64,000 bases of DNA, from NCBI GenBank assembly GCA_958295935.1, contig OY282385.1:1961545-2025544 (forward strand), given 5' to 3'. The position numbers and the translations under genes were made by a program. Under the pieces are notes generated by a model, which was not told the origin of the DNA, made no database searches, and saw only the letters and a list, made by a program, of their open reading frames with translations. Numbering within the stretch: the first letter of the stretch is position 1; each line of letters opens with the position of its first letter. Positions 6,684-52,561 of the stretch are shown one piece after another. Origin of the DNA: an uncultured Dehalococcoidia bacterium (GTDB lineage Bacteria; Chloroflexota; Dehalococcoidia; Lucifugimonadales; Lucifugimonadaceae).

Positions 6684-6867
6684 GGTCCTGTTCTCCGCCT
6701 GCCTGCCCCGGCTATCGGGGGCGTTGCATTTGCGTGCTCATGGCCCGCCATCCTAACCGCGGGACGTCATGCCGGTAAATCTGTAGATGCTCGTTAGTAT
6801 GGCCGTTCAGACCAAATTCGCAAGCGCCGTGCGACCTCCGCGGCGCAATCCGTCAGGCCGTTCATGC

Positions 6868-8043
6868 TCAGGCTGCATGAGCTCTCACCGTACCGCGATG
6901 TACTGTAAAGCGCTTTGCGCCGGAGAGATACTGAGCCTCTATTAGAGCAAGGTCGGTTGTGGTGAGCAACGTTTGGTCGTAGACGGCCACCTCTTCCAGT
7001 ACGAGCCTCCTGCGGTTGGCGTCCAACTCAGACAGCACGTCGTCGAGAGCCAGAACCGGTGTCCTGCCCGCCGAGTCAGCCACGACCGCCGCCTCTGCCA
7101 GTTTGAGGGCCAAGGCAATAGAGCGCGCCTGACCGCGTGACGAGTAGGCTCCGGCCTGTTGACCGTCGAGCCGAATCTCGAGGTCGTCGCGGTGTGGCCC
7201 TATGATGGACATGCCCTGAGCCACTTCGCGCCCGCGAGCGGCTCTCAGCGCGTTCAGGATGTCAGCAGCGATAGCCGCTGCCCCTATGTCGGAGATGTCG
7301 CGAGCCGGGCCCTCGGACACTGTCAACCTTGGGCGGTAGGTGAGGCTCAGCATACCGCCGCCGCTCAATTTCTGGTGCGTTGGAATCGCATATTGGGCAA
7401 GATCGGCTACCGCCTTGTTGCGGCGCTCCACTATCGCCGCTCCTTCGTGCGACAACCGCCCGTCCCAGAACTCCAATTCATCGATCTCGGCCCGCCCTTC
7501 ACGAACGCGTCGCAGCAGTTGATTCCTCTGGGCAACCACTCTTGAGTAGCGCTGCCGGTTTTTCAGATAGACCGCGTCCGACTGCGATATCAATATGTCC
7601 AGATAACGGCGCCTGAACGAGGGCGCGCCTGTGATTATCTCAAGGTCGCTCGCCTCGAAGAACACGATGTTCATGTTGCCGACGAACTCCCCCGCGGTGC
7701 GCAACACGCCGTTTACCCGGAGCGATTTTCGCATCGGGGGGGATCCCATGTTTCCGGGCGCGGACACCTCTATATCCATCTGCGCACGAACGATAAAGTC
7801 GCGCTCCCTACCCACGCCCAGCACTTGCACGTGACCCCCCAACTGAGCTACGTCCCGGTTTACCAGCTCGCGATCATTGGACGATCTGGGAGACCTGGCG
7901 ATGGCGAGCAGGTAAGCCGCCTCCAGCAGATTGCTCTTGCCTTGCCCGTTCTCGCCTTGGAATATACTCAGGCCGGGCTCAAGCTCCAACTCGGCGGACG
8001 CGTAGTTGCGAAATCCCGAGAGGGCGAGCCTTGAGAAGTGGAT
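6868..8043 (-). CDS. recF: DNA replication and repair protein RecF. The start codon is non-canonical or unresolved.
   Basis: The track ORF (TTG at 7989) begins inside the Walker A motif (FQGENGQGKSNLLEA). Upstream in frame the conserved RecF N-terminus continues (AIHFSRLALSGFRNYASAELELEPGL). No ATG, GTG or TTG occurs between it and the stop at 8137-8139. The best candidate start is ATC at 8041-8043. Confidence 0.75.
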   Translation of the reverse strand: MHFSRLALSGFRNYASAELELEPGLSIFQGENGQGKSNLLEAAYLLAIARSPRSSNDRELVNRDVAQLGGHVQVLGVGRERDFIVRAQMDIEVSAPGNMGSPPMRKSLRVNGVLRTAGEFVGNMNIVFFEASDLEIITGAPSFRRRYLDILISQSDAVYLKNRQRYSRVVAQRNQLLRRVREGRAEIDELEFWDGRLSHEGAAIVERRNKAVADLAQYAIPTHQKLSGGGMLSLTYRPRLTVSEGPARDISDIGAAAIAADILNALRAARGREVAQGMSIIGPHRDDLEIRLDGQQAGAYSSRGQARSIALALKLAEAAVVADSAGRTPVLALDDVLSELDANRRRLVLEEVAVYDQTLLTTTDLALIEAQYLSGAKRFTVHRGTVRAHAA

Positions 8044-10931: not shown

Positions 10932-11204
10932 ATCGAAGACCCCTGCGGCCGATTGAAGACCGCGTGCGGGGATCAAAAGACACCCGTAGTTCTCTCCGTC
11001 TCCCAAGCCTGCCCCCTGAAGCCACCAGTCCCCTGGTTAGCGGTAACTGCCTCGGGTCCGCGACGAGCGCCCCACTTGGGAGGCGCTCATGACCCTCGCC
11101 CGCTCAGAACGCTGTCTCGGTGTGATGACAGCCGCCCTCGCCGGCGTCACCCGTCTCTCCTCCGTGTCTGTTCTCGTGAAACACTCTGGAAAGCGAGAGG
11201 AAGA

Positions 11205-12962
11205 TCACTCGGGAAATAAAGTCACCACACTAGCTATGCGAGTGTAGTTTTCGTCGCTGCCGGAGGTTAACGCCACCGCTCCGAAAGTATCAGCCAGGAA
11301 TAGGTACAATAGGTTGCCGGTCTCACTTTCGGCGGATATCTGCTCTAAGATGTTGTTTAGGTCCAAATAGAATAATATTTGCCGGCTTTCTGGCAGGTGT
11401 TGAACCGCACGCCGATATTCAGGCTCCGAGTCCAGCGTAGGACCTTCGCCATTCTGCGCTCCTACTATGCTCTCTATCACCTCTGACGTGCTGCCCATAG
11501 TCAGATATCCGTCGTGCACAACGTAGCCTGGGTCATACTGTGAACCGGGTATCTCGTAAATCCGTGCCTCACCTTCCGAGCCTACGTCAACCAGTTCAGG
11601 ATTCACACCCACCAGACTTACGAGCGTTTCAATAGTCTGTCCGATTTCGTCTGCACCGCTTTCACTGACTGACAGCATACCGAACCCGCCGATAGGGTTG
11701 GCGTCCACGCCTTCCATGAAACTAGCCAGCACCGATTCCTGCACTCCCAGGATCACCGTTCCTGTGAGATGGTCAAATATATCCTCTTCAAGGTCGACGC
11801 CGAGAATACCTTCCGCGAGTGACAATCCGACGTCCAAGAAATCGGCCAAAGGCGAGTCCACGGTGAGACTCTCTCCGGAATCCAGACCCAGACCCGGCAA
11901 TAGATCCATCATGTCATCGAAACTTTGTTCAAGGTCACTCCCTTCGAGTATTTCTGCGAGGGTGTATTCGTTCAGGACGCTCCGCCAGTTGTCGACGTCA
12001 GGATCGAAGGTAGCAGCCATGAAGCCGAGGGTGTCTCTTGGAAGCTCGGAGGCGGGGTCTTCCAAATCAGGCGCCTCGAAACCGAGTTCGGGCAATATCG
12101 GCGACAGCCATTCCAACACTATTCCTCGATCAACCCAGGTCGCCGAAGCCGCTACCCACGTCGGTACCGATGCGGGCGCATCTATGGCGTTGGCTCCGAA
12201 CAGGTTGGAGGTGTTCGACAGTAGCGGCCAAAATTCCACTAGCGTATCGACATTCACGTAGATGGAGGCGAACCGGCCCCCGGGCATTGCGTCGCGGGCA
12301 TCGACAAACGAGTCGCTGTTGGCCAGAGACGGTTCGTCGTCACCGGCGATGCGCGCCAACATGCCGTGCAGAGCATCCTTGGCAGTGGCCAGAATTATCC
12401 GGTCGTCTGTTAACGCTAAACCAAATTCGCCGTCGCCCTCCATCCAGGTGTCAAAGCCATTGAAAGAGCCGGCAGCAAGATCTATATCGTGCTCTTGGCG
12501 AAGGATGGTGATCCACCGGGCCAGGAAATCTGCTGCGGCGTCTTTGTCGCGTACCCCAACCGTGCTTACTCCCGTAGGCGCCTCGGAATCCTCATTCCAG
12601 TAGAGCCCCATTGAATACTGGAATCCGATCCACGGTGACACGTCCTCTCTGAAGTCGATGCTCGTGCTTTCGAAGAGATCTGATTCAAGGCCGTCTATAA
12701 AGTCGATAAATAGTTCCGACTCATTGAAACGGTCCCAAATCACTTGCAAATTTCTCGCATTGCGGCTCGTAGGCTTCAAGTCCATAGATACGTATACGGC
12801 AGTATCTTGAGGATAGTATTGCGCTGAATGGTCAGGCCGCGCGGCCCTGAACAACGCAGCCAATTGACCCAGTGGAACGTCGGAAACGAGGGCGGCAACA
12901 CCGACTGACAGCCCAATGATGACGACCCACCCTGCAAACAATATGATTATTTTTCGACGCAT
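11205..12962 (-). CDS. Hypothetical N-terminally membrane-anchored protein, 585 aa, acidic (possibly DUF3352-like).
   Basis: An N-terminal TM helix (MRRKIIILFAGWVVIIGLSVGVAALV) is followed by a long soluble domain with no recognisable catalytic motif. Confidence 0.45.
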   Translation of the reverse strand: MRRKIIILFAGWVVIIGLSVGVAALVSDVPLGQLAALFRAARPDHSAQYYPQDTAVYVSMDLKPTSRNARNLQVIWDRFNESELFIDFIDGLESDLFESTSIDFREDVSPWIGFQYSMGLYWNEDSEAPTGVSTVGVRDKDAAADFLARWITILRQEHDIDLAAGSFNGFDTWMEGDGEFGLALTDDRIILATAKDALHGMLARIAGDDEPSLANSDSFVDARDAMPGGRFASIYVNVDTLVEFWPLLSNTSNLFGANAIDAPASVPTWVAASATWVDRGIVLEWLSPILPELGFEAPDLEDPASELPRDTLGFMAATFDPDVDNWRSVLNEYTLAEILEGSDLEQSFDDMMDLLPGLGLDSGESLTVDSPLADFLDVGLSLAEGILGVDLEEDIFDHLTGTVILGVQESVLASFMEGVDANPIGGFGMLSVSESGADEIGQTIETLVSLVGVNPELVDVGSEGEARIYEIPGSQYDPGYVVHDGYLTMGSTSEVIESIVGAQNGEGPTLDSEPEYRRAVQHLPESRQILFYLDLNNILEQISAESETGNLLYLFLADTFGAVALTSGSDENYTRIASVVTLFPE

Positions 12963-13195
12963 GTAAAACCTTCGTATCTTGAGCTGCCAGAGCTTACGAT
13001 CTCATCCTCTGCTAGCATATCATGCTCGGTTCCGGTGGGGATACTTCAGCAAGCGGACGCGGTTATCCTGCACGCGGCCTGACGGCTTGGAAACGTTCCT
13101 GGCGATGCGTCAAGAGCGGCTGCCAAAGACTGGCTATAATCGGGGCCATGTCCGGCTGAAAGGACGCCGGGCCGACGCACAGGCAAGGGAACTCA

Positions 13196-21885: not shown

Positions 21886-22938
21886 TCAAAACTGTGTCAG
21901 GAAGCGTAAATCGTTGGCGAAGAAGTGGCGAATGTCGTCGATGCCATGCCTGAGCATGGCGATACGTTCGGGGCCCATGCCGAAAGCGTATCCGGTGTAC
22001 CGCTCCGGGTCGTGCCCTGCATTGCGCAGCACGTTCGGATGCACCATACCCGCGCCCAATATCTCGATATATCCGGTCTGCTTGCACAACCTGCATCCCT
22101 GGCCAAAGCACTTGAAGCAATCGACCGCCATCTCAACGCCTGGCTCCACGAACGGAAAGAAATCACAGCGGAACCGCACTTTGCGATCCGGGCCAAAGAT
22201 ACGCCGCGCGAACTCGTACAGCGTACCTTTGAGGTCGGCAAACGTAATGTCAGTGTCCACCGCCAGCCCCTCGATCTGATGGAACTGCCACTCGTGGGTT
22301 GCGTCGGTAGCCTCGAAGCGGTAGCACAGTCCCGGCACGACTATGCGCACCGGCGGGGTCGTACTTTCCAGCGTCCGAACCTGCATCGGAGAGGTCTGAG
22401 TCCTGAGCAGAATGCCGTCACCGCCGGAGCGGTCTATCCAGATCGTGTCGTGTGAGTCCCTCGCCGGGTGGTCCGGCGGGATGTTGAGCATGTCGAAGTT
22501 GTAGCGTTCCCACTCGACCTGCGGCCCCTCCACGGTCTGGAACCCCATGGCATTGAATGCGGCCAGGATTTCTTGAATGGTCTGCGTCGACGGGTGCAAC
22601 CGGCCCCTGACGTGTCTCCGGCCCGGCAGGGTCACGTCAATCGCACCGATAGGTCCCGGGGTTCCAGAGGCCGCGAGCCTTTTGTCCAGAAGTCCTTCTA
22701 GGCGCGCTTTGGCTCGATTGGCCGCTGCTCCGGCCACCCTGCGATCAGCCGCGGGGAGGCTGCCCAGACTGCGCAGTATCGACGTGAGGGCGCCGCGCCT
22801 GCCCAGGTATTTGACGCGCCACGCCTCCAGCTTCTCGCCCTCGCCGCCCAATGCCTCCAACTCTCGTTCGGCGCTGGACGTGAGCCGTTCTATGGCCTGG
22901 GGCGTGGCCGAACTGTTTCCGTTTGCGGAATCCGTCAT
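21886..22938 (-). CDS. pheS: Phenylalanine--tRNA ligase alpha subunit.
   Basis: It has class II aaRS motifs (...FRCDFFPFVEPGVE...GAGMVHPNVL) and lies 106 bp upstream of pheT. Confidence 0.9.
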   Translation of the reverse strand: MTDSANGNSSATPQAIERLTSSAERELEALGGEGEKLEAWRVKYLGRRGALTSILRSLGSLPAADRRVAGAAANRAKARLEGLLDKRLAASGTPGPIGAIDVTLPGRRHVRGRLHPSTQTIQEILAAFNAMGFQTVEGPQVEWERYNFDMLNIPPDHPARDSHDTIWIDRSGGDGILLRTQTSPMQVRTLESTTPPVRIVVPGLCYRFEATDATHEWQFHQIEGLAVDTDITFADLKGTLYEFARRIFGPDRKVRFRCDFFPFVEPGVEMAVDCFKCFGQGCRLCKQTGYIEILGAGMVHPNVLRNAGHDPERYTGYAFGMGPERIAMLRHGIDDIRHFFANDLRFLTQF

Positions 22939-23363
22939 CAGTTTGTCAATCGTCAGAAGCCGTGGAGTGAGTGCAACGCAAGTCGCCTTCGATTATAAAC
23001 GGCCGGTCGATTGGCCCGATGCAGTGCGCCGACCCCCTTTGAGCGCGTCTCAAATTGGGAAACAATGGCTAGCCAGCGCCGCCTTGCCGCAAGTCGCGGG
23101 AAGTTCTCTACGGAATGGGTTGATCTTCAGGCATAACGTAATACATGCTAAAGGCGGTCTCTGAATACGAATATATGCATAGCACGGGTGTTATCGGTGT
23201 ATATCGCTATGTTTTCAGATGCAACCCGTGCATGGACTCTACAAAGACGCTCTAAGACGGGCCGTAGACCAAAGACTAGGCCGAACCGCTTGTAGTAACT
23301 TCAAGTTTCTTCACGAGGCGAACGCCTCACCGGGCCAGATGGCGATCTTGAAGCGAGGATGCT

Positions 23364-23510
23364 ATGGAAGCGTATTGCATGAAGTGTAAGGCCAAGCGGG
23401 AGATGAAGGATCCTGTGCCGTACGAGATGAAGAACAAACGTCCGGCCACTAAAGGCTTTTGCCCAACGTGCGGGACGAAGATGTTCAAGATCGGCAGCGG
23501 CAAGTCGTAG
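23364..23510 (+). CDS. Small zinc-ribbon protein, DUF5679-like, 48 aa.
   Basis: MEAYCMKCKAKREMKDPVPYEMKNKRPATKGFCPTCGTKMFKIGSGKS has CxxC...CxxC, and AGGAUG precedes the ATG. It is shorter than 60 aa, so it is absent from the ORF track. Confidence 0.5.
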   Translation: MEAYCMKCKAKREMKDPVPYEMKNKRPATKGFCPTCGTKMFKIGSGKS

Positions 23511-23702
23511 GCACGGCCATCCCGCGTATTCCGCCGCGCACAGAGCGCATCGGGAGCGCAACAGGCTACGGAAAGCTCGTCTCTTGGTTCTTGGCGGGTT
23601 ATTCGCGCGAGTCGCGCACGAACGCATCCCGACTCCCATAGGCCGCACAAGCAGATAGGGTACAGTGCCGCCTTGTCACCCATACCAGCTTAGGAGCCCC
23701 CT

Positions 23703-27812: not shown

Positions 27813-28006
27813 AGACAGTACCTCCGGATGTTTGACCTGCCTGGATCATATAGGCGCCGGCAGCGCGGTGACGCAGCGGGAGTGGACGGGGTAGGCCGTT
27901 TGGTGGCGGGATGGTCGCCTTCGCAGCGTTTTCTGGCTTGCGGCGGAATGACGGGGGAAGAGGGCTGCTCGACTGCCTGGGCGCGCCCCGGTCGATTGTC
28001 GTCTGT

Positions 28007-28963
28007 TTAACGCCCCTCATATCGGCAGCAACACCCGGCAAACATCACCCTTCCTTTGTTCTGGGGGGCAGCCAGGGCCTCCGCGCTGCTTGAGTAAGGC
28101 CCGTGCCACCAGTTATCGGGAAGGGGATCTGGCTTGCGGTTCTTGTAGTAGCGGCAGTATCCCTTGTGAATCTTGGACATACCGGTTGGTAGGTCGGTGT
28201 AGACGTAGAATTCTTCGCGCGACGTGCTTGGCGCGGGTGGAACTGGCGGATCCTGTCGCGGGGGCCGAGGGGCAGGTTCGGTAAACCGCGTCGGCGGGCG
28301 CGTAGTCGTATCCCGTAGCGGGGGCGGAGGGTCGGGTAGAGGTGGCGGGGCTGTGTCGGTCACGTCCCAGTTGGCGTAGAAGTCTTCCAGGCGCAGGCCG
28401 AATCGTCTGATAGAGGAAGTCAGTTCGACTCTGAGCGATTCGTACATGTCCTCAAGCAACTTCCGGTTGCCCCGGATTTGCTGAGCGGTGTATTTATTGA
28501 GGTCCAAAGACAGAACCTTGCCCTGCAGCTCTCCCTTCAACCACTCCCCAACGTCGTGCACGGTCACCCTATCGTCCTTGTCCATAGGCCGGATTTGGCG
28601 CAGCCTCTCGCACTGCTCCTGTACCAGCGCCAGCGTGAGGACTACTTCACCCGTGACGGAGGCGCTATCGGAAGTGAGCGCGGGGAAGTCGAGCGGAATA
28701 CGTCCGCCGTGCCTGGAGGGGTCGTCGGGCTCTGGCAGCCAGAAGGCCAATTTGAAGGGGGCCTTCGTCGTCACGTAGGTTTTTATCTGCCCTTTTGGAA
28801 GGCGCCTCTGACCACCTGAAAAGATGTCCCATATCGCGCCGTCGCGTATGATTATCCCGACGTGATGCGGGTCGACTGTAAAAAACTTTCGGCAACACCA
28901 ATCCCGCCGGACGTTCTTATCGCCGGGCCGGAATATCGTCTCGCTATCGCTCTCCCTGTTCAA
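28007..28963 (-). CDS. SPFH-like N-terminal domain, Pro-rich linker and C-terminal Ada-like Zn-ribbon module; paralogue 1 of 3.
   Basis: The N-terminal roughly 190 aa align with the N-domain of the 30786-33215 protein (PHHVGIIIRDG / PHELVVVIRDG; ...IRGNRKLLEDMYESLRVELTSSIRRFGLRLEDFYANWDVTD / ...LRGNEALLRSIYDSLRVELAATLSGYGFRLDNFFINWGLTD). The C-terminus is ...EEFYVYTDLPTGMSKIHKGYCRYYKNRKPDPLPDNWWHGPYSSSAEALAAPQNKGRVMFAGCCCRY. Confidence 0.5.
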   Translation of the reverse strand: MNRESDSETIFRPGDKNVRRDWCCRKFFTVDPHHVGIIIRDGAIWDIFSGGQRRLPKGQIKTYVTTKAPFKLAFWLPEPDDPSRHGGRIPLDFPALTSDSASVTGEVVLTLALVQEQCERLRQIRPMDKDDRVTVHDVGEWLKGELQGKVLSLDLNKYTAQQIRGNRKLLEDMYESLRVELTSSIRRFGLRLEDFYANWDVTDTAPPPLPDPPPPLRDTTTRPPTRFTEPAPRPPRQDPPVPPAPSTSREEFYVYTDLPTGMSKIHKGYCRYYKNRKPDPLPDNWWHGPYSSSAEALAAPQNKGRVMFAGCCCRYEGR

Positions 28964-29055
28964 GTTAGATTCCTTATCTCTGGGTAGGTGCAGTGGGATG
29001 TGGAGAACCGCTGGACGCGCCCCGGCCGATTGTGGTCTGTTCAGCTCCCATTACG

Positions 29056-29829
29056 TCAGCGACAGCGCTCGGCAAACGTCACCCTTCCTCTGTTCTGGGT
29101 GGCATCCCAGGCCTTCGCCTCGGCCTCCGCCTCACTTGAGTAAGGCCCGTGCCACCAGTTATCAGGAAGAGGATCTGGCTTACGGTTTTCGTAGTGGTAG
29201 CAGGGTCCCTTGTGAATCTTGGAGTTTGAACCGTCGGTGTAGACGTAGAATTTCTCTCGCGATGGGCTTGGCGCGGATGGAACTGGTGGATCCTGTTGCG
29301 GGGGCCGGGAGGCAGGCTCGGTAAACCGCGTCAGCGGACGCGTAGTCGTATCCCGTAGCGGGGGCGGGGAAGAGAGCCGGTCCCTGATTCTTTCTACCGC
29401 CTGCTTACTGTCGGATTCGTTGATGCGTCCGAGCAGGTCCGCGATGACGGTCACGCGGCTCCTGACATCCTCTATGTCCAGGTCGCTCTGTGAAGGATGC
29501 GCCGCTTTGTTCCGCGCATCGCGGATCATCCACAACATGTTCTTGACTATTTCGTCGTTCCAGAACTCCTGGCTGAAAATGTCGTTCCAGTACCCGTCTA
29601 CCAGTTTCGGAAAGTCGTTTATGTCGATAGATTCCTCAGCGCTGCCAGTGCGGCGGAGGTCATCTGAGAAATACTTGCCCCGACCACCTAGTTTGCCCTT
29701 TATAGCCTCCTCGATGTTCTTGCCTTTTACACGATTCAGGCATCGGACGATGAAAGGACGCATAGCGTAGCGGAATATGTCAAGCGCATCGTGGAGCGCT
29801 TGTTTGTTTGGATAAAGAGATTCTGTCAT
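29056..29829 (-). CDS. Swt1-type HEPN domain, Pro-rich linker and Ada-like Zn-ribbon module; paralogue 2 of 3.
   Basis: The ATG at 29827-29829 follows AGGAGCCAAAAAA. The HEPN motif is ...MIRDARNKAAHPSQSDLDIEDVRSRVTVIADLLGRI (Rx4H). The C-terminus is ...KFYVYTDGSNSKIHKGPCYHYENRKPDPLPDNWWHGPYSSEAEA...RVTFAERCR. The track ORF extends upstream to 29997 only because the frame stays open. Confidence 0.55.
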   Translation of the reverse strand: MTESLYPNKQALHDALDIFRYAMRPFIVRCLNRVKGKNIEEAIKGKLGGRGKYFSDDLRRTGSAEESIDINDFPKLVDGYWNDIFSQEFWNDEIVKNMLWMIRDARNKAAHPSQSDLDIEDVRSRVTVIADLLGRINESDSKQAVERIRDRLSSPPPLRDTTTRPLTRFTEPASRPPQQDPPVPSAPSPSREKFYVYTDGSNSKIHKGPCYHYENRKPDPLPDNWWHGPYSSEAEAEAKAWDATQNRGRVTFAERCR

Positions 29830-29977
29830 TTTTTTGGCTCCTACCTGATTGAGAGACTCGAATGGCGTTTGGACTGAATAAATTTTGGTCAGGGCAGTGC
29901 CGGGGCAAGGGGGAGTGGGACGTGGAGAACTGCTGAGCGCGCCCCGGTCGATTGTGGTCTGTTCCGCGCCCATTACG

Positions 29978-30682
29978 TCAGCGACAGCACCCGGCAAACA
30001 CCACCCTTCCTCTGTTCTGGGAGGCAGCCCGGGCCCCCGCCTCGCTTGAGTAAGGCCCGTGCCACCAGTTATCAGGAAGGGGGTTTGGCTTGCGGTTCTT
30101 GTAATAGCGGCAGGATGCCTTGTGAATCTTGGACATCCCGGTTGGTAGGTCGGTGTAGACGTGGAATCCCTCGCGCGACGTGCTTGGCGCGGGTGAAACT
30201 GGCGGATCCTGTCGCGGGGAAGAAAGCCGGTCCCTGATTCTTTCTACCGCCTGCTTACTGTCGGGTTCTTTGATGCGTCCGAGCAGGTTGGCGATGTCGG
30301 TCACGCGGCTCCTGACATCCTCTCTATCCAGGTCTTTCTGTGGAGGATGCGCCGCTTCGTTCCGCGCATCGACGATCGTCCGCAACGTGTTCTTGACCTT
30401 TCTCTCGCCCCTGAACTCCTGGCGGAAAATGTCGGTCCAGTACTCGTTTATAAGATCTGGAAAGTAGTTTATGTCGATAGATTCCTCGACGCTGCCAGTG
30501 CGGTAGAGGTTATTGGAGAATTCCCTGCTCCGAGCACCTTTAAGTTTTTCCTTTATAGCCTCCTCGGCGCTCTTGCCTTCGACACGATTCAGGCATCGGA
30601 CGATGAAGCGACGCATATCGTAGCGGAATATGTCAAACGCATCGTTGAGCGCTTGCTTGTTTGGGTAATAGTATTCTGTCAT
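29978..30682 (-). CDS. Swt1-type HEPN domain, Pro-rich linker and Ada-like Zn-ribbon module; paralogue 3 of 3.
   Basis: The ATG at 30680-30682 follows an identical duplicated 5' leader/RBS. It reads MTEYYYPNKQALNDAFDIFRYDMRRFIVRCLNRV...IVDARNEAAHPPQKDLDREDVRSRVTDIANLLGRI...KIHKASCRYYKNRKPNPLPDNWWHGPYSSEAGARAASQNRGRVVFAGCCR. Confidence 0.55.
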   Translation of the reverse strand: MTEYYYPNKQALNDAFDIFRYDMRRFIVRCLNRVEGKSAEEAIKEKLKGARSREFSNNLYRTGSVEESIDINYFPDLINEYWTDIFRQEFRGERKVKNTLRTIVDARNEAAHPPQKDLDREDVRSRVTDIANLLGRIKEPDSKQAVERIRDRLSSPRQDPPVSPAPSTSREGFHVYTDLPTGMSKIHKASCRYYKNRKPNPLPDNWWHGPYSSEAGARAASQNRGRVVFAGCCR

Positions 30683-30785
30683 TTTTTTGGCTCCTACCTG
30701 ATTGAGAGACTCGAATGGCGTTTGGACTGAATAAATTTTGGTCGGGGGTAGCACCGGGACACAGGGGGTGAATGGATGGCTGTTT

Positions 30786-33215
30786 TCACTGGAGCACGGT
30801 GGCTACCGCGGGGGAGGATAATACGTCTCCGCCCGTTTTGTAGCTCCATAGGAGCTTGCCTGAGGATTGGTCCAGCGCGTAGAGGTGATCGTCGTCCGAT
30901 CCTATGAACACGGTGCCGCGGTTCACCGCTGCGCTGGATCTCACGTCCCCCCGCGTCCGGTAGCGCCATAGCAGTTCACCTGTGACGGCGTCCAGCGCGT
31001 AGAGGTGGTCGTCGGTCGATCCGGCGTACACGACACCGTCGATCACCGACGGCCGATTCACGCTATCGCCTGTCTCGTATCGCCAACTCAGATCGCTCGT
31101 GCCGGCGTCCAGCGCGTAGAGGTGGTCGTCGCCAGATCCGGCGTACACGACTCCGTCGGCCACTGCGGGCGACGAGAAGCTGACGTAGTAGTCGCTGCTA
31201 CGGTATCTCCATAACGTGTCTCCAGTCGCCGCGTCTAGTGTGGACAGGTACCTGTCAGCCCTGTTTGCGCGCGCGGCGTACACGACTCCGTCGGCCACTG
31301 CGGGCGACGAGGAGAAGGAGCCGAGGAAGATGCCGCCGGGGCGGTATCGCCACAACAGGTCTCCGGTCGCCGCGTCAAGCGAGTAGAGGTAATCGTCGTT
31401 CGATACTATGAACACGACTCCGTCGGCCACCGCGGGTGAGGAGTGGACGTTGTCGCCGGTCTCGTATCGCCATAGCAGGTCTCCGGTCGCCGCATTGAGC
31501 GCGTAGAGATGGTCATCGGCTGATCCGGCGTACACGACTCCGTCGGCCAGCGCGGGCGAGGAGTGGACGTCGCCGCCGGTGCGGTATCGCCATAGCAGGT
31601 CTCCGGTCGCCGCGTCGAGCGCGTAGAGGTTGTTGTCGTACGACCCTACGTAGATGACGCCGTTGGCCGCTGCGGGCGAGGAATGCACCTCGCCGCCGGT
31701 CCGGTAACTCCAGCTCAGCTCGCCCGTTTCCGCGTCCAGCGCGTACAGGTACTTGTCGCCTGAGCCCACGTAAACGAGATCGCGCTCTGTGGGTACATGC
31801 GGCGTAGCAGTCGCAGTTGGAGTGAAAGTCGGGGTGGGTGAGGCAGTTGGCGTAGGCGTAGGAGTGGAAGTCGGCGTTGCGGTGGGTGGCGCGGTGGTCG
31901 GGGTCGGCGCGGCTGTTGGCGCAGGCGTTGGAATCGAAGTCGGGATTGGATTGGGCGGCGCGTTGGTCGCGGCCGTTGGCGCTGGAACGGCGGTTGGCAC
32001 TGGGCGCGTGGGAGTTGGAACCGAAGTCGGTGTTTGAGTGGGCGGCGCGTTGATCGCGCCCGTTGGTGTTGGAACAGTCGTTGGCGCTGCGCGCGCGGGA
32101 GTTGGAACCGAAGTCGGTGTTTGAGTGGGCGGCGCGTTGATCGCGCCCGTTGGTGTTGGAACAGTCGTTGGCGCTGCGCGCGCGGGAGTTGGAACCGAAG
32201 TCGGTGTTTGAGTGGACGGAGCGTTGGTCGCGGCTGTTGGGAGTGGAACAGTCGTCGGGGAGGGTGTCGGGGTATGGGCCGGCGTCGAGGGTATGACTAC
32301 GGGAGCGGGCGTGTTCGTGGGGATCTGCGCTGCGGCCTGATTTTGGGGTTCACTAATCGCGAGTCTGTCGTTTAGCCAGATCCCGAGGAAGATGCCGCCG
32401 GCCAGGAGAAGGAGGGCAAGTACCGCGAAGGCGGTGACTGCCGGGCTTCTGAAGCCTCGCCAGCCTCCCTTTCGTTGGGATTCCGCGCTGCGGTCTGCAC
32501 CGGATAGAGCGTCGAGTTCCCTTTTTCTCTGTTCCGCGCGCAGACGGGCCTGGTGACGCTGATCCTCGATGGAAGTGCGTTCGGCATCGGTCAGGCCCCA
32601 ATTGATGAAGAAGTTGTCGAGCCGGAAGCCGTAGCCCGACAGCGTGGCTGCGAGTTCGACCCTGAGCGAGTCGTATATCGAGCGCAGCAGGGCCTCGTTG
32701 CCGCGCAGTTCCGCGGCGGTGTGCTTGCTGAGTTCGTGTGCGACGACCTTGGCCAGCAGTTCGTCCTTGAGGTATTCGGCGACGTCCGCCACGCCTATGG
32801 CATCCCGTCCGCGCATGAAGGCGGGCAGCCGGTCGGCGTCCTCCAGGGTGACGGCGAGCCTGAGATTCACCTGCGCGGCTATGAGCTGTCCGTCGGCAGT
32901 GAGAGCGGGGATGCCCTGCGTATCCAGTTCGGACGGGCTGTCAGGGTCCTCGAGCCAGAAGGAGACGGTGAACGGAGAGGTGTCGGCCTGGAGCGCGCGC
33001 GTGCTGGGGCCGCTGCCGAGGAGCGCGCGCAGGAAGTCGCCGAGGCTTCTGGTGCTGCGCTTGCCCTCGGTGAAGATCTCGACGATCTTGCCGTCGCGGA
33101 TGACTACGACCAGCTCATGGGGTTCGGCGATGACGTTGCGCCCGAACCCGCGTAGATCCTTGCGGCCCAGGTAGGCCGCAACGGTATCTACTCCGAATCT
33201 CCGCCAGGAGGTCAT
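30786..33215 (-). CDS. Membrane protein with an N-terminal SPFH (band-7)-like domain, coiled coil, one TM helix, Pro/Thr repeat linker and a C-terminal PQQ-type (BamB-like) beta-propeller.
   Basis: The SPFH-like region reads ...ELRGNEALLRSIYDSLRVELAATLSGYGFRLDNFFINWGLTDAERTSIEDQRHQARLRAEQRKRE. The TM helix is AVTAFAVLALLLLAGGIFLGIWL. About 8 repeats follow of the type YLYALDAATGDLLWRYRTGGDVHSSPA. The ATG at 33213-33215 overlaps the upstream stop (TGAaATG); the track start 33236 is the alternative. Confidence 0.6.
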   Translation of the reverse strand: MTSWRRFGVDTVAAYLGRKDLRGFGRNVIAEPHELVVVIRDGKIVEIFTEGKRSTRSLGDFLRALLGSGPSTRALQADTSPFTVSFWLEDPDSPSELDTQGIPALTADGQLIAAQVNLRLAVTLEDADRLPAFMRGRDAIGVADVAEYLKDELLAKVVAHELSKHTAAELRGNEALLRSIYDSLRVELAATLSGYGFRLDNFFINWGLTDAERTSIEDQRHQARLRAEQRKRELDALSGADRSAESQRKGGWRGFRSPAVTAFAVLALLLLAGGIFLGIWLNDRLAISEPQNQAAAQIPTNTPAPVVIPSTPAHTPTPSPTTVPLPTAATNAPSTQTPTSVPTPARAAPTTVPTPTGAINAPPTQTPTSVPTPARAAPTTVPTPTGAINAPPTQTPTSVPTPTRPVPTAVPAPTAATNAPPNPIPTSIPTPAPTAAPTPTTAPPTATPTSTPTPTPTASPTPTFTPTATATPHVPTERDLVYVGSGDKYLYALDAETGELSWSYRTGGEVHSSPAAANGVIYVGSYDNNLYALDAATGDLLWRYRTGGDVHSSPALADGVVYAGSADDHLYALNAATGDLLWRYETGDNVHSSPAVADGVVFIVSNDDYLYSLDAATGDLLWRYRPGGIFLGSFSSSPAVADGVVYAARANRADRYLSTLDAATGDTLWRYRSSDYYVSFSSPAVADGVVYAGSGDDHLYALDAGTSDLSWRYETGDSVNRPSVIDGVVYAGSTDDHLYALDAVTGELLWRYRTRGDVRSSAAVNRGTVFIGSDDDHLYALDQSSGKLLWSYKTGGDVLSSPAVATVLQ
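32007..32270 (-). repeat. Perfect 90-bp tandem repeat (2 copies plus a degenerate third) within the Pro/Thr linker coding region of the SPFH-propeller gene.
   Basis: Positions 32007-32096 are identical to 32097-32186 (ggagttggaaccgaagtcggtgtttgagtgggcggcgcgttgatcgcgcccgttggtgttggaacagtcgttggcgctgcgcgcgcg). Each copy encodes PTQTPTSVPTPARAAPTTVPTPTGAINAP. Confidence 0.6.
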
Positions 33216-33216
33216 T

Positions 33217-33759
33217 TCAGCCTTGGGCCTTCTCACGCGCTGCCCGCTCGATGTCTCCCAGCGCGTTGTCGTAACCGGCTCCCCGGTAGAACTGCGTTTC
33301 CGAAGGGTCCCTGTCGAATATGCTGATGACCGTTTCGAGCTTGTTGTCCGACCCCTTGACCTTGACGGCTACCTCTTCCATCTGGCTTTCCAGCGCGGCC
33401 GCATCCATCTCATTGATGAGCTTCCAGATGCCGCGCTTCTGGAGATCCTTCTTCATGTTGATGATGTTGATGGTCTCGTCCAGAACCGATATCTGCGTAA
33501 TCACGCGCTGGATGTTGTCCTCCGCCCTGTCCTTGCGCTTTCGGGCTTCGCTCATCCTGTAAGCGGCGACCTGCCGCTCTGCGGAGTTCTTGCCCGGCTC
33601 CGAGGCTATGTCCAGGCGGCGGTCGTACTCCTCCTGCGCACGCCTGATGGTTAACAGCAGCCTGTCCTGCCTGACCTCCTGTCGCGTGCGCTCCTTGCGC
33701 AGGTCGTCGATCTTCAGGTCCTCGAGCTTCTTTGCCGTGCCAAATCCAAATAGTGCCAT
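33217..33759 (-). CDS. ESCRT-III / PspA (IM30) superfamily-like coiled-coil protein, 180 aa.
   Basis: It starts MALFGFGTAKKLEDLKIDDLRKERTRQEVRQ (ESCRT-III proteins begin M-x-LFG-(K/R)) and is predicted all-helical, with ...NIQRVITQISVLDETINIINMKKDLQKRG...MDAAALESQMEEV. It is translationally coupled to both neighbours. The family assignment is tentative. Confidence 0.45.
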   Translation of the reverse strand: MALFGFGTAKKLEDLKIDDLRKERTRQEVRQDRLLLTIRRAQEEYDRRLDIASEPGKNSAERQVAAYRMSEARKRKDRAEDNIQRVITQISVLDETINIINMKKDLQKRGIWKLINEMDAAALESQMEEVAVKVKGSDNKLETVISIFDRDPSETQFYRGAGYDNALGDIERAAREKAQG

Positions 33760-33760
33760 G

Positions 33761-34234
33761 TCATCTCCTTCTTCTTCTGATTACCTTGACGCTCTCGCCG
33801 TCATGGTCTTTCACGTTGGAAACGCTGATCTTCTTCTCCTGTCGGAGCTGCTCGACGACTTCATCGACGACGTTCTCCGGGAACTGCCCGACGAACTGAT
33901 CTATGACGAACACCTTGCGGCTGTCGTCGAGCAGCGCTGTCTCAATCTCGCGGCGGCAGGCGTCCAGCAGTTTTTGTCGCCTCTGGTACTCGGTGTCCTG
34001 CGGCTCCGCGGGCGGGACGAGGGGCTCTCTGCCGCGGGACACGTCCGGGCCGTGGTGCTGCCTCTCCAGCCATGCGTCTATCTCCGAGCGGCGGAAGCGC
34101 CACGTGGACCCGAGCTTGAACACGGGGATCTTCCCGGACTGCGCCCAGTCGTAGATGGTGCGCTCGGACATGTTGAGGTACCTGGCCACTTCCGGTATGG
34201 ACATGAGCGCCGGGGCGCTGTCGCTGCCGTTCAT
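33761..34234 (-). CDS. Excisionase-family (MerR-like HTH_17) DNA-binding protein with a C-terminal extension; the first gene of the operon.
   Basis: It contains MSIPEVARYLNMSERTIYDWAQSGKIPVFKLGSTWRFRRSEIDAWLE. GGAG lies 5 nt upstream of ATG 34234. Confidence 0.6.
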   Translation of the reverse strand: MNGSDSAPALMSIPEVARYLNMSERTIYDWAQSGKIPVFKLGSTWRFRRSEIDAWLERQHHGPDVSRGREPLVPPAEPQDTEYQRRQKLLDACRREIETALLDDSRKVFVIDQFVGQFPENVVDEVVEQLRQEKKISVSNVKDHDGESVKVIRRRRR

Positions 34235-34897: not shown

Positions 34898-35956
34898 ATG
34901 ACGGCTAACAGCCCTGCCAACACACCGCCAAAAAGTAGACCAACGTCTGGCCGGCCGCGCATACTCACCGGCATCCGCCCCACCGGCGCGCTTCATCTTG
35001 GGCACTACGTCGGCGCGCTCAAGAACTGGGTGCGCCTGCAAGACGAATATGAGTGCTACTTCCTGATCGCCGACTACCAGGCTCTTGGAGACCACTTCCA
35101 TGAAATCGACCTGATCAGGGAATCGGTCATAGAAGTCACTCTCGACTTCCTGGCCGTGGGGCTGGATCCGGAGAAATCGACCTTCGTCGTCCAGAGCTAC
35201 GTACCGGAGCACGCCGAACTGGCTATGCTCCTGAGCTTCATCACGCAATTGGGTATGCTCGAACGCAATCCCACACTCAAGGCCGAACTCGATAGCCTGC
35301 CCGTGACCCACCGCACGGTGGGGTTCTACAACTACCCCATGAGCCAGGTGGCGGACATACTGTTGCCGCGGGCCCACCTGGTACCCGTGGGAGAGGATCA
35401 GGCTCCGCACGTCGAGATGACCAGGGAGGTGGCGCGCAAGTTCAATCGTATGTTCGGCGAGGTATTCCCGGAGCCGCAGACCCTCGTCGGCGAGGTGGGT
35501 CGGTTGGTGGGAACGGACGGCGCCGGAAAGATGAGCAAGAGCAGCGGAAACGTCATCATGCTTTCCGACGGCGAGGCGGACGTGAACGAGAAGGTGCGCA
35601 GTATGTTCACCGATCCCAGGAGAGTACGCGCCGATATTCCGGGTAGAGTCGAAGGCAACCCCTTGTTCGAGTACCACGATGCCTTCAACCCTGACACTGG
35701 CCAGGTTGACGAGTTCAAGGAGCGCTACAGGGCTGGAAAGGTGGGTGACGTAGAGGTCAAGAAAGCGCTGGCCCTGGCTATCAACCGTTTTCTCGACCCG
35801 ATCAGGGAACGCAGGGAGTACTACGAGCAGCGCCCCGGGCTGGTCGAGGATGCGATCATCTCCGGCGCAGAGCGGGCGAGCGCCATAGCCTCCGAGACCA
35901 TGATCATGGTGCGAGACGCCATGCGCATATCGTCATACACCTCGACGCGTCGATGA
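34898..35956 (+). CDS. trpS: Tryptophan--tRNA ligase.
   Basis: It has HLGH ([13 protein letters not shown]) and KMSKS class I aaRS motifs. Confidence 0.85.
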
Positions 35957-36195: not shown

Positions 36196-37707
36196 GTGTA
36201 CTACAAGCCAGACATAGAAACGTTCAGGTCTCTTGCCAGAGAGGCGAATCTGATACCCGTTTACCAGGAGATCACCGCTGACCTGGAGACCCCGGTTTCG
36301 GCATACCTGAAGACCGCCCGGGGGCCCTATTCCTGGTTGCTCGAATCGGTCGAGGGCGGCGAGAACGTGGCTCGATACAGTTTCATGGGCACTGAGCCAT
36401 CGGAAGTCCTCATATCCGGGCCGGGCGAGCGAGATGGAGAAGTCGACCCTCTCGAACTGCTTCAGTCGCGCACGTCCGGGGTGAAGTACGCCGCGGTGCC
36501 GGGCCTCCCTTATTTTCACGGCGGCGCAGTTGGCTACGTGGGCTATGAGGCGATCAGATATTTTGAGCCCAAGGTGCCGCCGCTGCCCATGCCGGGCGTC
36601 GGCGTACCCGAGGCGGTTTTCATGCTGACCGACTCGTTGCTCATATTCGACCACGTTCGCCACACCATCGCGGTGGTGGGACACGCCCGTGTAGACGGAG
36701 ACCCGGACGCCGCCTACCAGAGAGCCACCCAGCGCATCCAGGACATGGTCGGACGTCTGGAGGCGCCACTGCCGGCACAGGCATACAGGCTCGCCCCGGC
36801 AAGAACCGGCGTGACCTCCGATGCCGGCCTGGATTACTCGCACAACCAAGATGCCAACGCGGGCCTGCCGACCAGTTCCAATATGAGCCGCGCAGACTAT
36901 GAGACGATGATCGAGGTCGCCCGCCGGGGGATCTACGACGGCGAGTTGATCCAGGTGGTGTTATCTCAACGGCTCTCACGCCCTACCGGCGCGGCCCCGT
37001 TCGACGTCTACAGGTCGCTCAGGGGAGTGAACCCGTCCCCATATATGTTCTATCTGGACCTTGGAGGGTTTCAGGTCGCAGGCGCCTCGCCGGAGTTGCT
37101 GGTGCAGATGATAGACGGCGACGTAGCCGTTCATCCCATAGCAGGCACGAGACCCAGAGGGGACACCCCGCAAGAGGATGAAGCGCTGGCCCGCGAACTG
37201 GCCCAAGACGAGAAAGAACGGGCGGAACACGTGATGCTGCTGGACCTGGGCCGCAACGACGTGGGCAGGGTTTCGGTTCCCGGAACAGTGAAAGTCACCC
37301 AGCAACTCGACCTGGAACGCTACTCACACGTGATGCACCTCGTTTCGCACGTTACAGGCAAGCTGCGGGATGAGTACGATGCCTACGACGCCCTGCGAGC
37401 AGGTTTTCCGGCAGGCACGGTTTCCGGAGCGCCCAAGGTGCGCGCCATGGAGATGATCGCCGAGTTGGAGCGTGACAAGCGCGGCCTATACTCCGGCGCA
37501 GTCGGATACTTCAGCTATACCGGCAACATGGACACCGCTATCTGCATCCGATCCATCGTGCTCAAGGACGGCGTGGCGCACATGCAAGCAGGCGGCGGCG
37601 TTGTCGCCGATTCCACGCCCAGCGGAGAATACCAGGAGTCACTGATCAAGATCGGCGCCCTGATGCGCGCCATCGACCACGCCGAGGACGTCGCCGGTGC
37701 CTCTTGA
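36196..37707 (+). CDS. trpE: Anthranilate synthase component I.
   Basis: A GTG start follows AAGGGA. It carries TrpE chorismate-binding motifs (...LESVEGGE...VLSQRLS...GAVGYFSYTGNMDTAICIRS). Confidence 0.85.
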   Translation: MYYKPDIETFRSLAREANLIPVYQEITADLETPVSAYLKTARGPYSWLLESVEGGENVARYSFMGTEPSEVLISGPGERDGEVDPLELLQSRTSGVKYAAVPGLPYFHGGAVGYVGYEAIRYFEPKVPPLPMPGVGVPEAVFMLTDSLLIFDHVRHTIAVVGHARVDGDPDAAYQRATQRIQDMVGRLEAPLPAQAYRLAPARTGVTSDAGLDYSHNQDANAGLPTSSNMSRADYETMIEVARRGIYDGELIQVVLSQRLSRPTGAAPFDVYRSLRGVNPSPYMFYLDLGGFQVAGASPELLVQMIDGDVAVHPIAGTRPRGDTPQEDEALARELAQDEKERAEHVMLLDLGRNDVGRVSVPGTVKVTQQLDLERYSHVMHLVSHVTGKLRDEYDAYDALRAGFPAGTVSGAPKVRAMEMIAELERDKRGLYSGAVGYFSYTGNMDTAICIRSIVLKDGVAHMQAGGGVVADSTPSGEYQESLIKIGALMRAIDHAEDVAGAS

Positions 37708-52417: not shown

Positions 52418-52561
52418 GACGCTCGGCGCTGTGGGCGGCCTACCGCGGTCAGCGCTTCATTACCGCTGAGGGGCATGAGGCATGTTGTACACTCGTACCC
52501 GGCTGCGCCCGCAGTCGGCAAGATCAGGTACAGCCGTAGCTTAGGCGGGGAGGGCAATCTC

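Follow-up and report, generated by a model that had tools for sequence, protein, structure and literature searches.

A tandem pair of Swt1-type HEPN genes in a Dehalococcoidia chromosome and their apparent link to SPFH-domain proteins through a shared C-terminal domain

How can a bacterial chromosome carry two adjacent genes for putative HEPN ribonucleases (RNases) when no antitoxin gene is found beside them? The question is raised by positions 29,056 to 30,682 of a 64,000-nucleotide stretch of contig OY282385.1 (assembly GCA_958295935.1, an uncultured bacterium of the class Dehalococcoidia, phylum Chloroflexota); the entire stretch, at its full length, is referred to below as the window. An original prediction, made from the sequence without database searches, had described here two adjacent genes of the Swt1-type HEPN family, denoted HEPN-A and HEPN-B (coordinates of all features are given in Table 1). 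Analysis of their domains, neighbors and relatives suggests that these genes are not orphan toxins missing an antitoxin; they appear to be fast-evolving effector genes of a membrane-associated system that is apparently uncatalogued. In particular, it is likely that both genes are components of a conserved system that also includes SPFH, coiled-coil and helix-turn-helix (HTH) proteins.

The HEPN genes

The predicted position and family of both genes proved correct. The two proteins match the Pfam profile HEPN_Swt1 (PF18731) with 40.3 and 41.2 bits (E = 4e-10 and 2e-10, respectively; the gathering cut-off is 27.5 bits), and the same profile is matched by the relatives P0009-P0013. The AlphaFold2 model of HEPN-A, with a predicted local distance difference test score (pLDDT) of 93.8, is all helical over residues 7-154, and a Foldseek search of the PDB started with this model identifies as the top match the C-terminal domain of yeast Swt1 (4pqz, probability 0.97, with a modest E-value of 0.06), followed by the HEPN protein 2hsb, so that the fold is Swt1-like even if the E-values of these matches are modest. 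The R-x4-H dyad and the conserved helix that surrounds it are present in both copies, as the prediction had it (RNEAAH in HEPN-A and RNKAAH in HEPN-B), and the motif is retained in the homologs as well: RNxxxH is found in 122 of the 152 HEPN family representatives, i.e., in about 80%, and R107, N108 and H112 are invariant among the 12 proteins that combine the HEPN domain with the C-terminal domain (CTD) described below. HEPN-B is a tandem paralog of HEPN-A, with 73% amino acid identity. Each of the ATG start codons lies 8 nt past an AGGAG sequence and homologs begin at the same MTE... or MTT... residues; the longer open reading frames (ORFs) that were listed mechanically for these genes include the translated 70-nt leader. 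RNase or toxin activity of HEPN-A and HEPN-B can be inferred from their family membership.

The nucleotide composition of the genes is likewise as described, with AT-rich N-terminal two-thirds. The HEPN-coding parts have a GC content of 52.7% and 53.3%, compared to the window mean of 60.7% (z = -2.7 and -2.5, values that place both parts among the ~2% of 480-nt windows with the lowest GC), whereas the parts encoding the linker and the CTD are at the genomic level of 60-61%. The GC content at third codon positions is 0.66 in the HEPN genes and 0.74-0.85 in the neighboring genes. The claim that an antitoxin of the MNT type is missing also holds, in that no protein of the gene row matches NTP_transf_2 or Polbeta and the gaps of 92-148 nt contain no ORF. 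However, the HEPN clade that associates with MNT genes is a different one from Abi2/Swt1 (PMC3710099), and accordingly the lack of an antitoxin is less odd than it had seemed.

A C-terminal domain shared by the HEPN proteins and an SPFH-like protein

The original prediction overlooked the CTD, as well as the conserved HTH_17 and coiled-coil genes further upstream, the presence of the complete gene set at other loci and the exceptional rate at which the HEPN domain diverges, all of which are described below. Judged by sequence, both HEPN proteins share with the product of the downstream SPFH-like gene (318 aa) a basic, Zn-ribbon-like domain of ~65 aa that in each case follows a Pro-rich linker. 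The three copies conform to the consensus F[YH]VYTD..SKIHK..C.YY.NRKP.PLPDNWWHGPYSS.AEA...GRV.FA..C and are 73-82% identical at the protein level, the CTD of the SPFH-like protein being 82% identical to that of HEPN-A and 75% identical to that of HEPN-B. At the DNA level, the identity is 84-89% for the CTD-coding segments and 84-91% for linker and CTD together, and the repeats run ~60 nt beyond the stop codon.

Among the models of Pfam, NCBIfam, PADLOC and PHROG, none matches the CTD. A profile search detects 46 further CTD clusters, which mostly consist of stand-alone proteins of 65-120 aa, with the wider consensus YWVYEDDPTNRxRIH...C..CNDGRG...DNRWHGPF..eA...C..C. The ligand pattern H-x3-C(-x2-C)...C-x2-C is found in 45 of 54 CTDs, the median isoelectric point (pI) is 9.05, and 88% of the domains have a pI above 8. 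The subtype present in the window has some of the ligands replaced (CRYY; AGCC, and AERC in HEPN-B, where the terminal Cys pair is thereby reduced). The structural model of the CTD (pLDDT 81) has the topology beta-beta-alpha-beta-alpha-beta and yields no significant match in the PDB, the top, weak one being ATfaRel2. An hhalign comparison with residues 1-92 of Ada gives a probability of only 3.8%, with the ...eA...C-x2-C-x-P segment aligned to Ada residues 54-79, and sub-threshold matches to Pfam DUF6233 recur at E = 0.02-0.3.

The CTDs of an SPFH-like protein and of the adjacent HEPN protein resemble each other far more than they resemble CTDs of another lineage. The identity between the two partners is 75-82% in the window, 85% in the sister contig L001 and 98% (one residue differs) in the distant metagenomic locus L090, compared to 30-42% between the CTDs of the window lineage and those of the L090 lineage. 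In these two lineages, the CTD subtype of the HEPN gene varies together with that of its SPFH partner; loci L092 and L095 are exceptions. Gene conversion was considered as the process that keeps the CTDs alike and rejected: the CTDs group by position and not by genome, which implies that there was no recent homogenization.

Stand-alone CTD genes were also considered as potential trans-acting antitoxins. This possibility was rejected as well, given that they are surrounded by housekeeping genes or the remains of IS21 elements and that no toxin partner is found among these neighbors. Stand-alone genes for 76-aa CTD proteins are located just 5' of degraded IS21 IstB fragments or other transposase genes (L082 and L085-L087, around 6001-7200), and a HEPN-CTD gene in L005 adjoins an IstB-like gene. 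The location of CTD genes near remnants of insertion sequences (IS) suggests that they spread with, or into, IS-rich regions.

The SPFH, coiled-coil and HTH_17 partners

The two HEPN genes are flanked by SPFH genes, as had been noted, and the entire row consists of six consecutive genes. The 816-aa protein encoded upstream of HEPN-A contains a Band_7 domain (PF01145; 31.5 bits against a cut-off of 23.6), followed by one transmembrane (TM) helix (aa 261-290), a Pro/Thr-rich linker of ~175 aa (30% P, 27% T) and a PQQ-type beta-propeller (PQQ_2, E = 8e-91). The TM helix is the single hydrophobic segment of this protein and is preceded by basic residues, so that the SPFH domain is predicted to be cytoplasmic, with the Pro/Thr stalk and the propeller outside. 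The 318-aa protein shows only a sub-threshold match to Band_7 (18.9 bits, E = 0.0017) and is a clear paralog of the SPFH domain of the 816-aa protein (phmmer E = 3e-32); it lacks TM segments, as do both HEPN proteins, and is thus predicted to be soluble. Proteins that combine an SPFH-like domain with the CTD are also found in L001, L090, L092 and L095, and the 324-aa SPFH-like protein of L090 matches Band_7 with 24.1 bits. The small SPFH protein, when used as the query of a word-based search, retrieved its own cluster only, and scans of JGI metagenomes with the CTD and with the SPFH domain detected no relatives.

The stalk-coding segment (31816-32250) is made up of four 87-nt repeats arrayed in tandem, with 61-84% identity to the reference copy, and the propeller blades are encoded by periodic DNA repeats of 117-120 nt (30814-31803); the stalk length may differ between strains.

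The 180-aa coiled-coil protein is the best-conserved marker of the row and has no match in Pfam, NCBIfam, PADLOC or the PDB; a search for a plasmid match yielded none either. The first gene of the row encodes a probable regulator with an HTH_17 domain (Pfam, E = 5e-20; NCBIfam excisionase domain, 59.8 bits) that scores 76.3 bits, just below the cut-off of 80, with the NCBIfam model of MAD1 from the methylation-associated defense system (MADS). The HTH may have its origin in modules that control restriction-modification, or be common to them and the row.

Conservation of the gene row in distant loci

Exact look-ups of HEPN-CTD proteins uncovered the distant metagenomic loci L090, L092 and L095, in which the gene row recurs at 30-56% identity. 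L090 encodes, in this order, a type IIG restriction-modification (RM) enzyme, an HTH_17 protein (158 aa), a 179-aa coiled-coil protein, an SPFH-like protein with a coiled coil and the CTD (398 aa), a second SPFH-like protein (324 aa), a 110-aa TM protein, a NUDIX protein and a HEPN-CTD protein. The order in L095 is RM enzyme, HTH_17 protein, 182-aa coiled-coil protein, SPFH-like protein of 461 aa that ends in TM helices, small TM proteins, a CXXCXGXG protein of 80 aa, HEPN protein with a Zn-finger tail, SPFH-like protein with the CTD (446 aa), NfeD-like protease and Smr. The row in L092 is related and partly truncated, and L091, L092 and L093 represent variants of L090 and L095. In L090 and L095, the orthologs of the HTH_17 protein that head the row show 45-47% identity to the window protein, the coiled-coil orthologs, located in the same position, 52-56% (E = 7e-63 and 1e-70), the two SPFH-like paralogs 32-47%, and the HEPN proteins with a CTD-type tail 41-50%. 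One of the SPFH paralogs carries the CTD whereas the other one is linked to the membrane: in L095 it ends in TM helices, and in L090 a TM protein is encoded next to it. In L095, the HEPN gene is sandwiched between both SPFH genes, as in the window. By its predicted domain content, then, the core of the row comprises an HTH_17 protein, a coiled-coil protein, a membrane-linked SPFH protein, an SPFH protein with the CTD and a HEPN protein with a CTD-type tail.

These relatives reside in a defense-island context. The rows of L090 and L095 are located directly 3' of the type IIG RM enzyme gene (PADLOC, 1.9e-64), and in L095 the genes for the NfeD-like protease, Smr and an MTase-HNH protein follow. 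NfeD is a classic partner of SPFH proteins; a protein with SDH_protease and NfeD1b_N domains is found in L091 and L095, two related loci, and no gene of the NfeD family is present in the window. A PADLOC-DB v2.0 search over the window row and L095 left the system-specific proteins unmatched, the only match in the window being mad1, on the generic HTH.

Two further observations concern L090 and L095. The HTH_17 gene in both comes directly after an RM enzyme gene that weakly matches mad2 (L095 2095-6055). A second possible shared domain, with the pattern ...VPDWVK.QIPKY...YYL.GKTF.YRISF..., is located at the C-terminus of the SPFH-like proteins (L090 6050-7550; L095 7753-9138 and 10823-12163). 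The 110-aa TM protein encoded beside them in L090 shows a weak match to it (pairwise E = 1e-4), which hints at a second adaptor pair that would link the scaffold to the membrane.

Rapid evolution of the HEPN genes

The sister contig L001 is 98.4% identical to the window at the DNA level across the right flank. The amino acid identity between the two contigs and the ratio of nonsynonymous to synonymous substitution rates (dN/dS) are 99.4% and 0.13 for the AKR, 99.0% and 0.08 for the M48 peptidase, 98.5% and 0.20 for the S9 peptidase, 95.9% and 0.21 for the SPFH-like protein with the CTD, and 93.5% and 0.50 for the C-terminal part of the propeller protein; for HEPN-A, these values are 75.2% and 0.79. 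For the HEPN domain alone, dN/dS reaches 0.91 (HEPN-A versus L001), 0.97 (HEPN-A versus HEPN-B) and 1.36 (HEPN-B versus L001), compared to 0.4-0.7 for the CTD. The synonymous divergence (dS) of the HEPN genes is 3-5 times that of the flanks, which implies that the three HEPN alleles either predate the split of the genomes or were exchanged.

This very fast evolution spares the conserved core of the domain. Among the three HEPN copies, 62 of the 155 positions vary, and only one of these falls within the 30 columns that are most conserved in the family (p = 8e-7 by the Fisher test and 1e-10 by the Mann-Whitney test), indicating that the HEPN genes are not decaying. In L001, the second HEPN copy (1964-2233) has lost the HEPN domain in frame, such that a 16-aa N-terminus is fused to the CTD (89 aa altogether), and a gene for an 83-aa protein with two TM helices (2453-2704) is inserted after it. 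With its tandem duplication, lost domain, divergent alleles and reduced GC content, the locus is a typical hypervariable conflict locus.

A scaffold model and its alternatives

SPFH domains are building blocks of large oligomeric rings or cages, and the active site of HEPN RNases depends on dimerization. The most economical model is one in which both SPFH paralogs would co-assemble into an oligomeric scaffold at the inner face of the membrane, and the CTD would function as an effector-associated domain (EAD), with the CTD of the SPFH paralog and those of the HEPN proteins binding each other or a common ligand. The HEPN RNases would be kept inactive at the scaffold on their flexible Pro-rich tethers, in which case a separate antitoxin would be unnecessary. 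A signal that arrives via the membrane or the extracellular propeller (e.g., phage adsorption or injection, or envelope damage) would reorganize the scaffold, and the HEPN domains, freed or clustered, could then dimerize to form the composite R-x4-H site, cleave RNA and arrest the cell. As a whole, this model of HEPN RNase effectors docked via the CTD on an SPFH membrane scaffold, within a six-gene conflict (probably anti-phage) system, is proposed tentatively, with a chance of being correct that is judged to be slightly short of even. More specific, and rather doubtful, is the possibility that the row is an undescribed immune module in which an SPFH cage with an extracellular propeller sensor stores CTD-docked RNases for release or activation on envelope attack, and that the CTD founds a new EAD family. 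Such a module would be an abortive-infection system that works through a scaffold and transmembrane signaling, apparently concentrated in lineages known from metagenome-assembled genomes (Dehalococcoidia and other Chloroflexota, Poribacteria, Latescibacterota).

Several observations do not fit this model easily. The other relatives of the HEPN domain whose genome contigs were examined, mostly proteins of ~1100 aa, have no SPFH neighbor, and those sampled are fusions with a DUF499 ATPase. Lone HEPN-CTD genes, with neither an SPFH gene nor a second CTD gene within 8-10 kb on each side, are found in L005, L045, L088 and L089, and the HEPN-CTD gene on the 4.4-kb contig L094 likewise has no such partner; apparently, then, the CTD need not require an SPFH protein. 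Moreover, most of the CTD homologs are the small stand-alone proteins, in unrelated contexts. The CTDs of the HEPN and SPFH proteins of L092 belong to different subtypes and are only 46% identical, and in L095 the HEPN protein has a YWLN-type tail whereas its SPFH partner carries a canonical CTD. The locus in the window has housekeeping surroundings and is not part of a defense island, and dN/dS values near 1 obtained from three sequences do not discriminate between positive selection and relaxed constraint.

The lone genes at unrelated sites, along with the absence of a separate antitoxin gene, would be accommodated by a self-contained toxin-sensor similar to CapRel, i.e., a single-gene abortive-infection module in which the CTD folds back to inhibit the HEPN domain in cis and releases it upon binding a phage product, the SPFH neighbors having acquired the same domain by chance; the weak fold match of the CTD to ATfaRel2, which itself is structurally similar to the cis-acting pseudo-Zn-finger of CapRel (PMC11782079), points in the same direction. 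This explanation is considered unlikely. The CTD evolves more slowly than the HEPN domain (dN/dS of 0.4-0.7 compared to about 1), which is the opposite of what would be expected of a phage-sensing domain; it is also present on a non-toxic SPFH-like protein and co-varies in subtype with that partner; the long Pro-rich linker resembles a tether rather than a latch; and it is the entire multi-gene row that is conserved. Somewhat less probable still is the role of the CTD as a Zn-binding, RNA- or DNA-binding tail, akin to the Ada N-terminal domain or DUF6233, that would steer the HEPN domain to its substrate and, on the SPFH protein, tether nucleic acid at the membrane, with no protein-protein coupling involved. 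The basic charge of the CTDs, the ligand spacing, which in the 45 CTDs with the pattern is identical to that of the Cys4 site in the N-terminal domain of Ada, the hhalign alignment with Ada and the recurrent DUF6233 matches are all compatible with such a role, and fusions of HEPN domains with Zn-ribbons are known (PMC3710099). However, none of these similarities is significant, the window copies lack one or two of the ligand residues, and neither the co-variation of the CTD subtypes between the SPFH and HEPN proteins nor the location of the domain behind a long flexible linker on the SPFH protein would be explained.

The third alternative dispenses with conflict altogether. The HEPN genes could be drifting recent duplicates, or the row could be a lineage-specific housekeeping module for RNA processing or membrane organization, with the high dN/dS reflecting relaxed constraint. 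A dN/dS of about 1 fits neutrality, the HEPN domain has already been lost from one copy in L001 and a Cys ligand from HEPN-B, the surrounding genes are housekeeping ones, and there is no match to a PADLOC system. Under drift, however, one would not expect three HEPN frames to remain intact at about 15% divergence, with the catalytic dyad whole in every copy and substitutions avoiding the family-conserved core (p of about 1e-6 to 1e-10), nor the gene set to be kept at 30-56% identity in distant loci that adjoin RM genes. This explanation is quite improbable and the least favored of the three. The model of HEPN effectors docked on an SPFH scaffold remains the preferred one.

Relationship to known systems

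Bacterial Swt1-like HEPN proteins of the Ava_2192 type (PF18731; PMC3710099) belong to the same HEPN subfamily as the window proteins, with the RNxxxH motif, an N-terminal HEPN domain followed by variable modules, and no MNT antitoxin. The closest relatives of the window HEPN domain are likewise N-terminal parts of proteins that mostly reach ~1100 aa and, in those sampled, contain DUF499 ATPase, UDG, LRR or DUF4268 modules. The window proteins differ in that the module is a CTD on a Pro-rich tether and the partners are SPFH-like proteins, without the ATPase or restriction-modification helicase partners known for Ava_2192. Among other single-protein HEPN effectors of defense that lack an MNT or antitoxin partner, ApeA and AbiD/AbiF are presumably inactive until infection; they represent other HEPN subfamilies and lack both a shared adaptor domain and SPFH partners.

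The manner in which the CTD is distributed resembles that of EADs, small non-enzymatic domains of which one copy resides on a core protein and more on effectors encoded by adjacent genes, with the copies in neighboring genes being closer to each other than to others (Kaur et al. 2020, PMC7159879). In the window, L001 and L090, the CTD is present on the SPFH-like and the HEPN proteins, and in L092 and L095 both proteins have CTD-type tails, of different subtypes; with the exception of these two loci, CTDs within a locus are 75-98% identical, compared to 30-42% between lineages. In contrast to the cores associated with EADs (vWA-MoxR, STAND, GAP1 GTPase), the core in the window is an SPFH scaffold in a row without an NTPase gene, and the CTD is also widespread as an orphan protein; the Pfam EAD models produce no match to the CTD at E <= 1. 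CapRel(SJ46) and FaRel2/ATfaRel2 (PMC11782079) similarly combine an N-terminal toxin that targets translation with a small (pseudo)zinc-finger domain; the toxin there is of the RelA/SpoT type and not HEPN, the similarity is non-significant, and the CTD is found on a non-toxin as well. Stomatin/SPFH-NfeD operons, HflK/C and flotillins have in common with the row a Band_7 domain by the membrane and, in L095, a NfeD-like ClpP-class protease. Compared to these, the topology in the window is inverted (a cytoplasmic SPFH domain, the TM helix and an extracellular propeller), and the row contains two divergent paralogs, one of them soluble and carrying the CTD, together with HEPN, HTH_17 and coiled-coil proteins and no NfeD.

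What is new here is the combination of a putative Swt1-type HEPN effector with EAD-like coupling by an unannotated domain and a core that consists of an SPFH scaffold. Such a core was found neither in PADLOC (v2.0) nor in full-text searches of the literature, which identified no paper that joins SPFH proteins with HEPN-based defense. If the model is correct, an SPFH or flotillin-type scaffold would join the short list of ways to silence a lethal RNase without an antitoxin, and the new adaptor domain would extend the principle of the effector-associated domain, so far tied to NTPase cores. The functions of bacterial SPFH proteins are poorly defined, and one concrete function would then be to serve immune effectors as a platform. 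The locus itself, with 99% identity in the flanks, 75% in HEPN-A and the domain core untouched, could be a natural case of diversifying selection that acts on the effector and not on the sensor, and the CTD family, which comprises dozens of mostly orphan small proteins without a Pfam model, would obtain its first functional context. The practical impact is limited because the system is rare and its hosts are uncultured lineages only.

Distribution of the HEPN family

An exhaustive HMMER search identifies 639 HEPN family representatives at E <= 1e-3. The HEPN domain is nearly always N-terminal and is followed by variable modules, among them a DUF499 ATPase (the Ava_2192 type), UDG, LRR, DUF4268 and a Zn-ribbon with TM helices; the HEPN-CTD architecture is represented by about ten mutually diverged clusters. 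Genomic context was sampled for the best 80 HEPN loci in species-representative genomes (L002-L081). Almost all of these come from metagenome-assembled genomes (MAGs) of Latescibacterota, Poribacteria and Dehalococcoidia, SAR202 or other Chloroflexota, along with one Spirochaetales MAG and one Vicinamibacterales MAG, and none of the 80 includes an SPFH relative beside the HEPN gene, L001 being the exception outside this sample. Latescibacterota, Poribacteria and Chloroflexota are presumably typical symbionts of marine sponges with high microbial abundance. The spread of this HEPN subfamily across unrelated phyla with an apparently shared habitat, probably marine sponges, suggests habitat-wide horizontal exchange.

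The lone HEPN-CTD genes are located next to IS elements (L005), in a suf operon (L045), after ffh (L088) and among amidohydrolase genes (L089). In L045 (9980-11346), the HEPN-CTD gene and an overlapping gene for a 203-aa protein are inserted between sufC and sufD; a PD-(D/E)xK-like motif (D...QVK) is discernible by eye in the 203-aa product. L063 (9926-12345), from a Dehalococcoidia MAG, contains a tandem pair of HEPN genes that encode proteins with 79% identity, each with a Cys-rich Zn-ribbon-like region and C-terminal TM helices, which indicates that tandem duplication and membrane association recur in the HEPN family; membrane-associated HEPN proteins of the Abi2/Swt1 clade have been described previously (Anantharaman et al. 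2013, PMC3710099).

Organization of the locus and non-coding elements

The stop codon of the HTH_17 gene and the start of the coiled-coil gene are 1 nt apart, the coiled-coil gene and the start of the 816-aa SPFH gene overlap by 20 nt, and the gaps around the HEPN genes are about 100, 148 and 92 nt (Table 1).

Table 1. Features of the six-gene row in the window and the corresponding 3' tails in L001
Feature	Position	Strand	Description
HTH_17 protein	34234..33761	minus	157 aa; gene 1 of six consecutive genes
Coiled-coil protein	33759..33217	minus	180 aa; gene 2
SPFH paralog 1	33236..30786	minus	816 aa; gene 3; SPFH, TM helix, Pro/Thr linker, PQQ propeller
HEPN-A	30682..29978	minus	234 aa; gene 4; HEPN aa 1-155, short Pro-rich linker, CTD
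RNEAAH of HEPN-A	30364..30347	minus	R-x4-H motif
CTD of HEPN-A	about 29981..30175	minus	last 65 codons
HEPN-B	29829..29056	minus	257 aa; gene 5; HEPN, longer Pro-rich linker common to the SPFH-like gene, CTD
RNKAAH of HEPN-B	29514..29497	minus	R-x4-H motif
CTD of HEPN-B	about 29059..29259	minus	
SPFH paralog 2	28963..28007	minus	318 aa; gene 6; SPFH-like aa 1-215, Pro-rich linker, CTD
CTD of SPFH paralog 2	about 28010..28219	minus	
Leader of HEPN-B	29830..29900	minus	~70 nt, conserved, with AGGAG ribosome-binding site; 5' of HEPN-B
Leader of HEPN-A	30683..30754	minus	second leader copy; 5' of HEPN-A
3' tail of HEPN-A	29908..29977	minus	after stop codon; repeat families D6, D12
3' tail of HEPN-B	28986..29055	minus	after stop codon; repeat families D6, D12
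3' tail of SPFH paralog 2	27945..28006	minus	after stop codon; repeat families D6, D12
3' tails in L001	1819-1888, 2234-2303, 3794-3863		after all three CTD genes

A direct repeat (29690-29894 and 30543-30747, 91% identical) overlaps both leaders. Each gene that ends with the CTD, in the window and in L001, is followed by a 3' tail (AACAGACCACAATCGACCGGGGCGCG...) of which ~45-60 nt are conserved. No convincing conserved RNA structure was found for this tail (-7.9 kcal/mol, little covariation); possibly it acts as a terminator or as a recombination site, or it simply belongs to the duplicated unit. Searches of the leader and the 3' tail for a sigma-70-like promoter, a terminator or a regulatory RNA yielded nothing above chance, the only Rfam match being to an unrelated T-box.

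The window is an ordinary piece of chromosome that includes polA, fpg, moeA, pheST, trpS and the trp operon, the latter being 68-70% identical at the nucleotide level to that of one Dehalococcoidia MAG. A prophage or plasmid origin of the row was considered and rejected: the PHROG matches are to the HTH only, IMG/VR contains no relatives, and the tRNA genes are distant. The synteny of a HEPN gene and the trp operon in L052 was judged to be coincidental.

The T-box leader (Rfam RF00230, 34496-34769 on the plus strand; E = 9e-16, with 76.8 bits, short of the gathering score of 93) is located directly 5' of the gene for Trp-tRNA synthetase (34898-35956). The trp operon comes after this gene, with anthranilate synthase at 36196-37707. 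Further stretches of low GC content (below 54% in 480-nt windows) are found at 11081-13181, 22841-23601 and 52561-53041, the first of which overlaps the gene for a DUF3352 protein (11205-12962).

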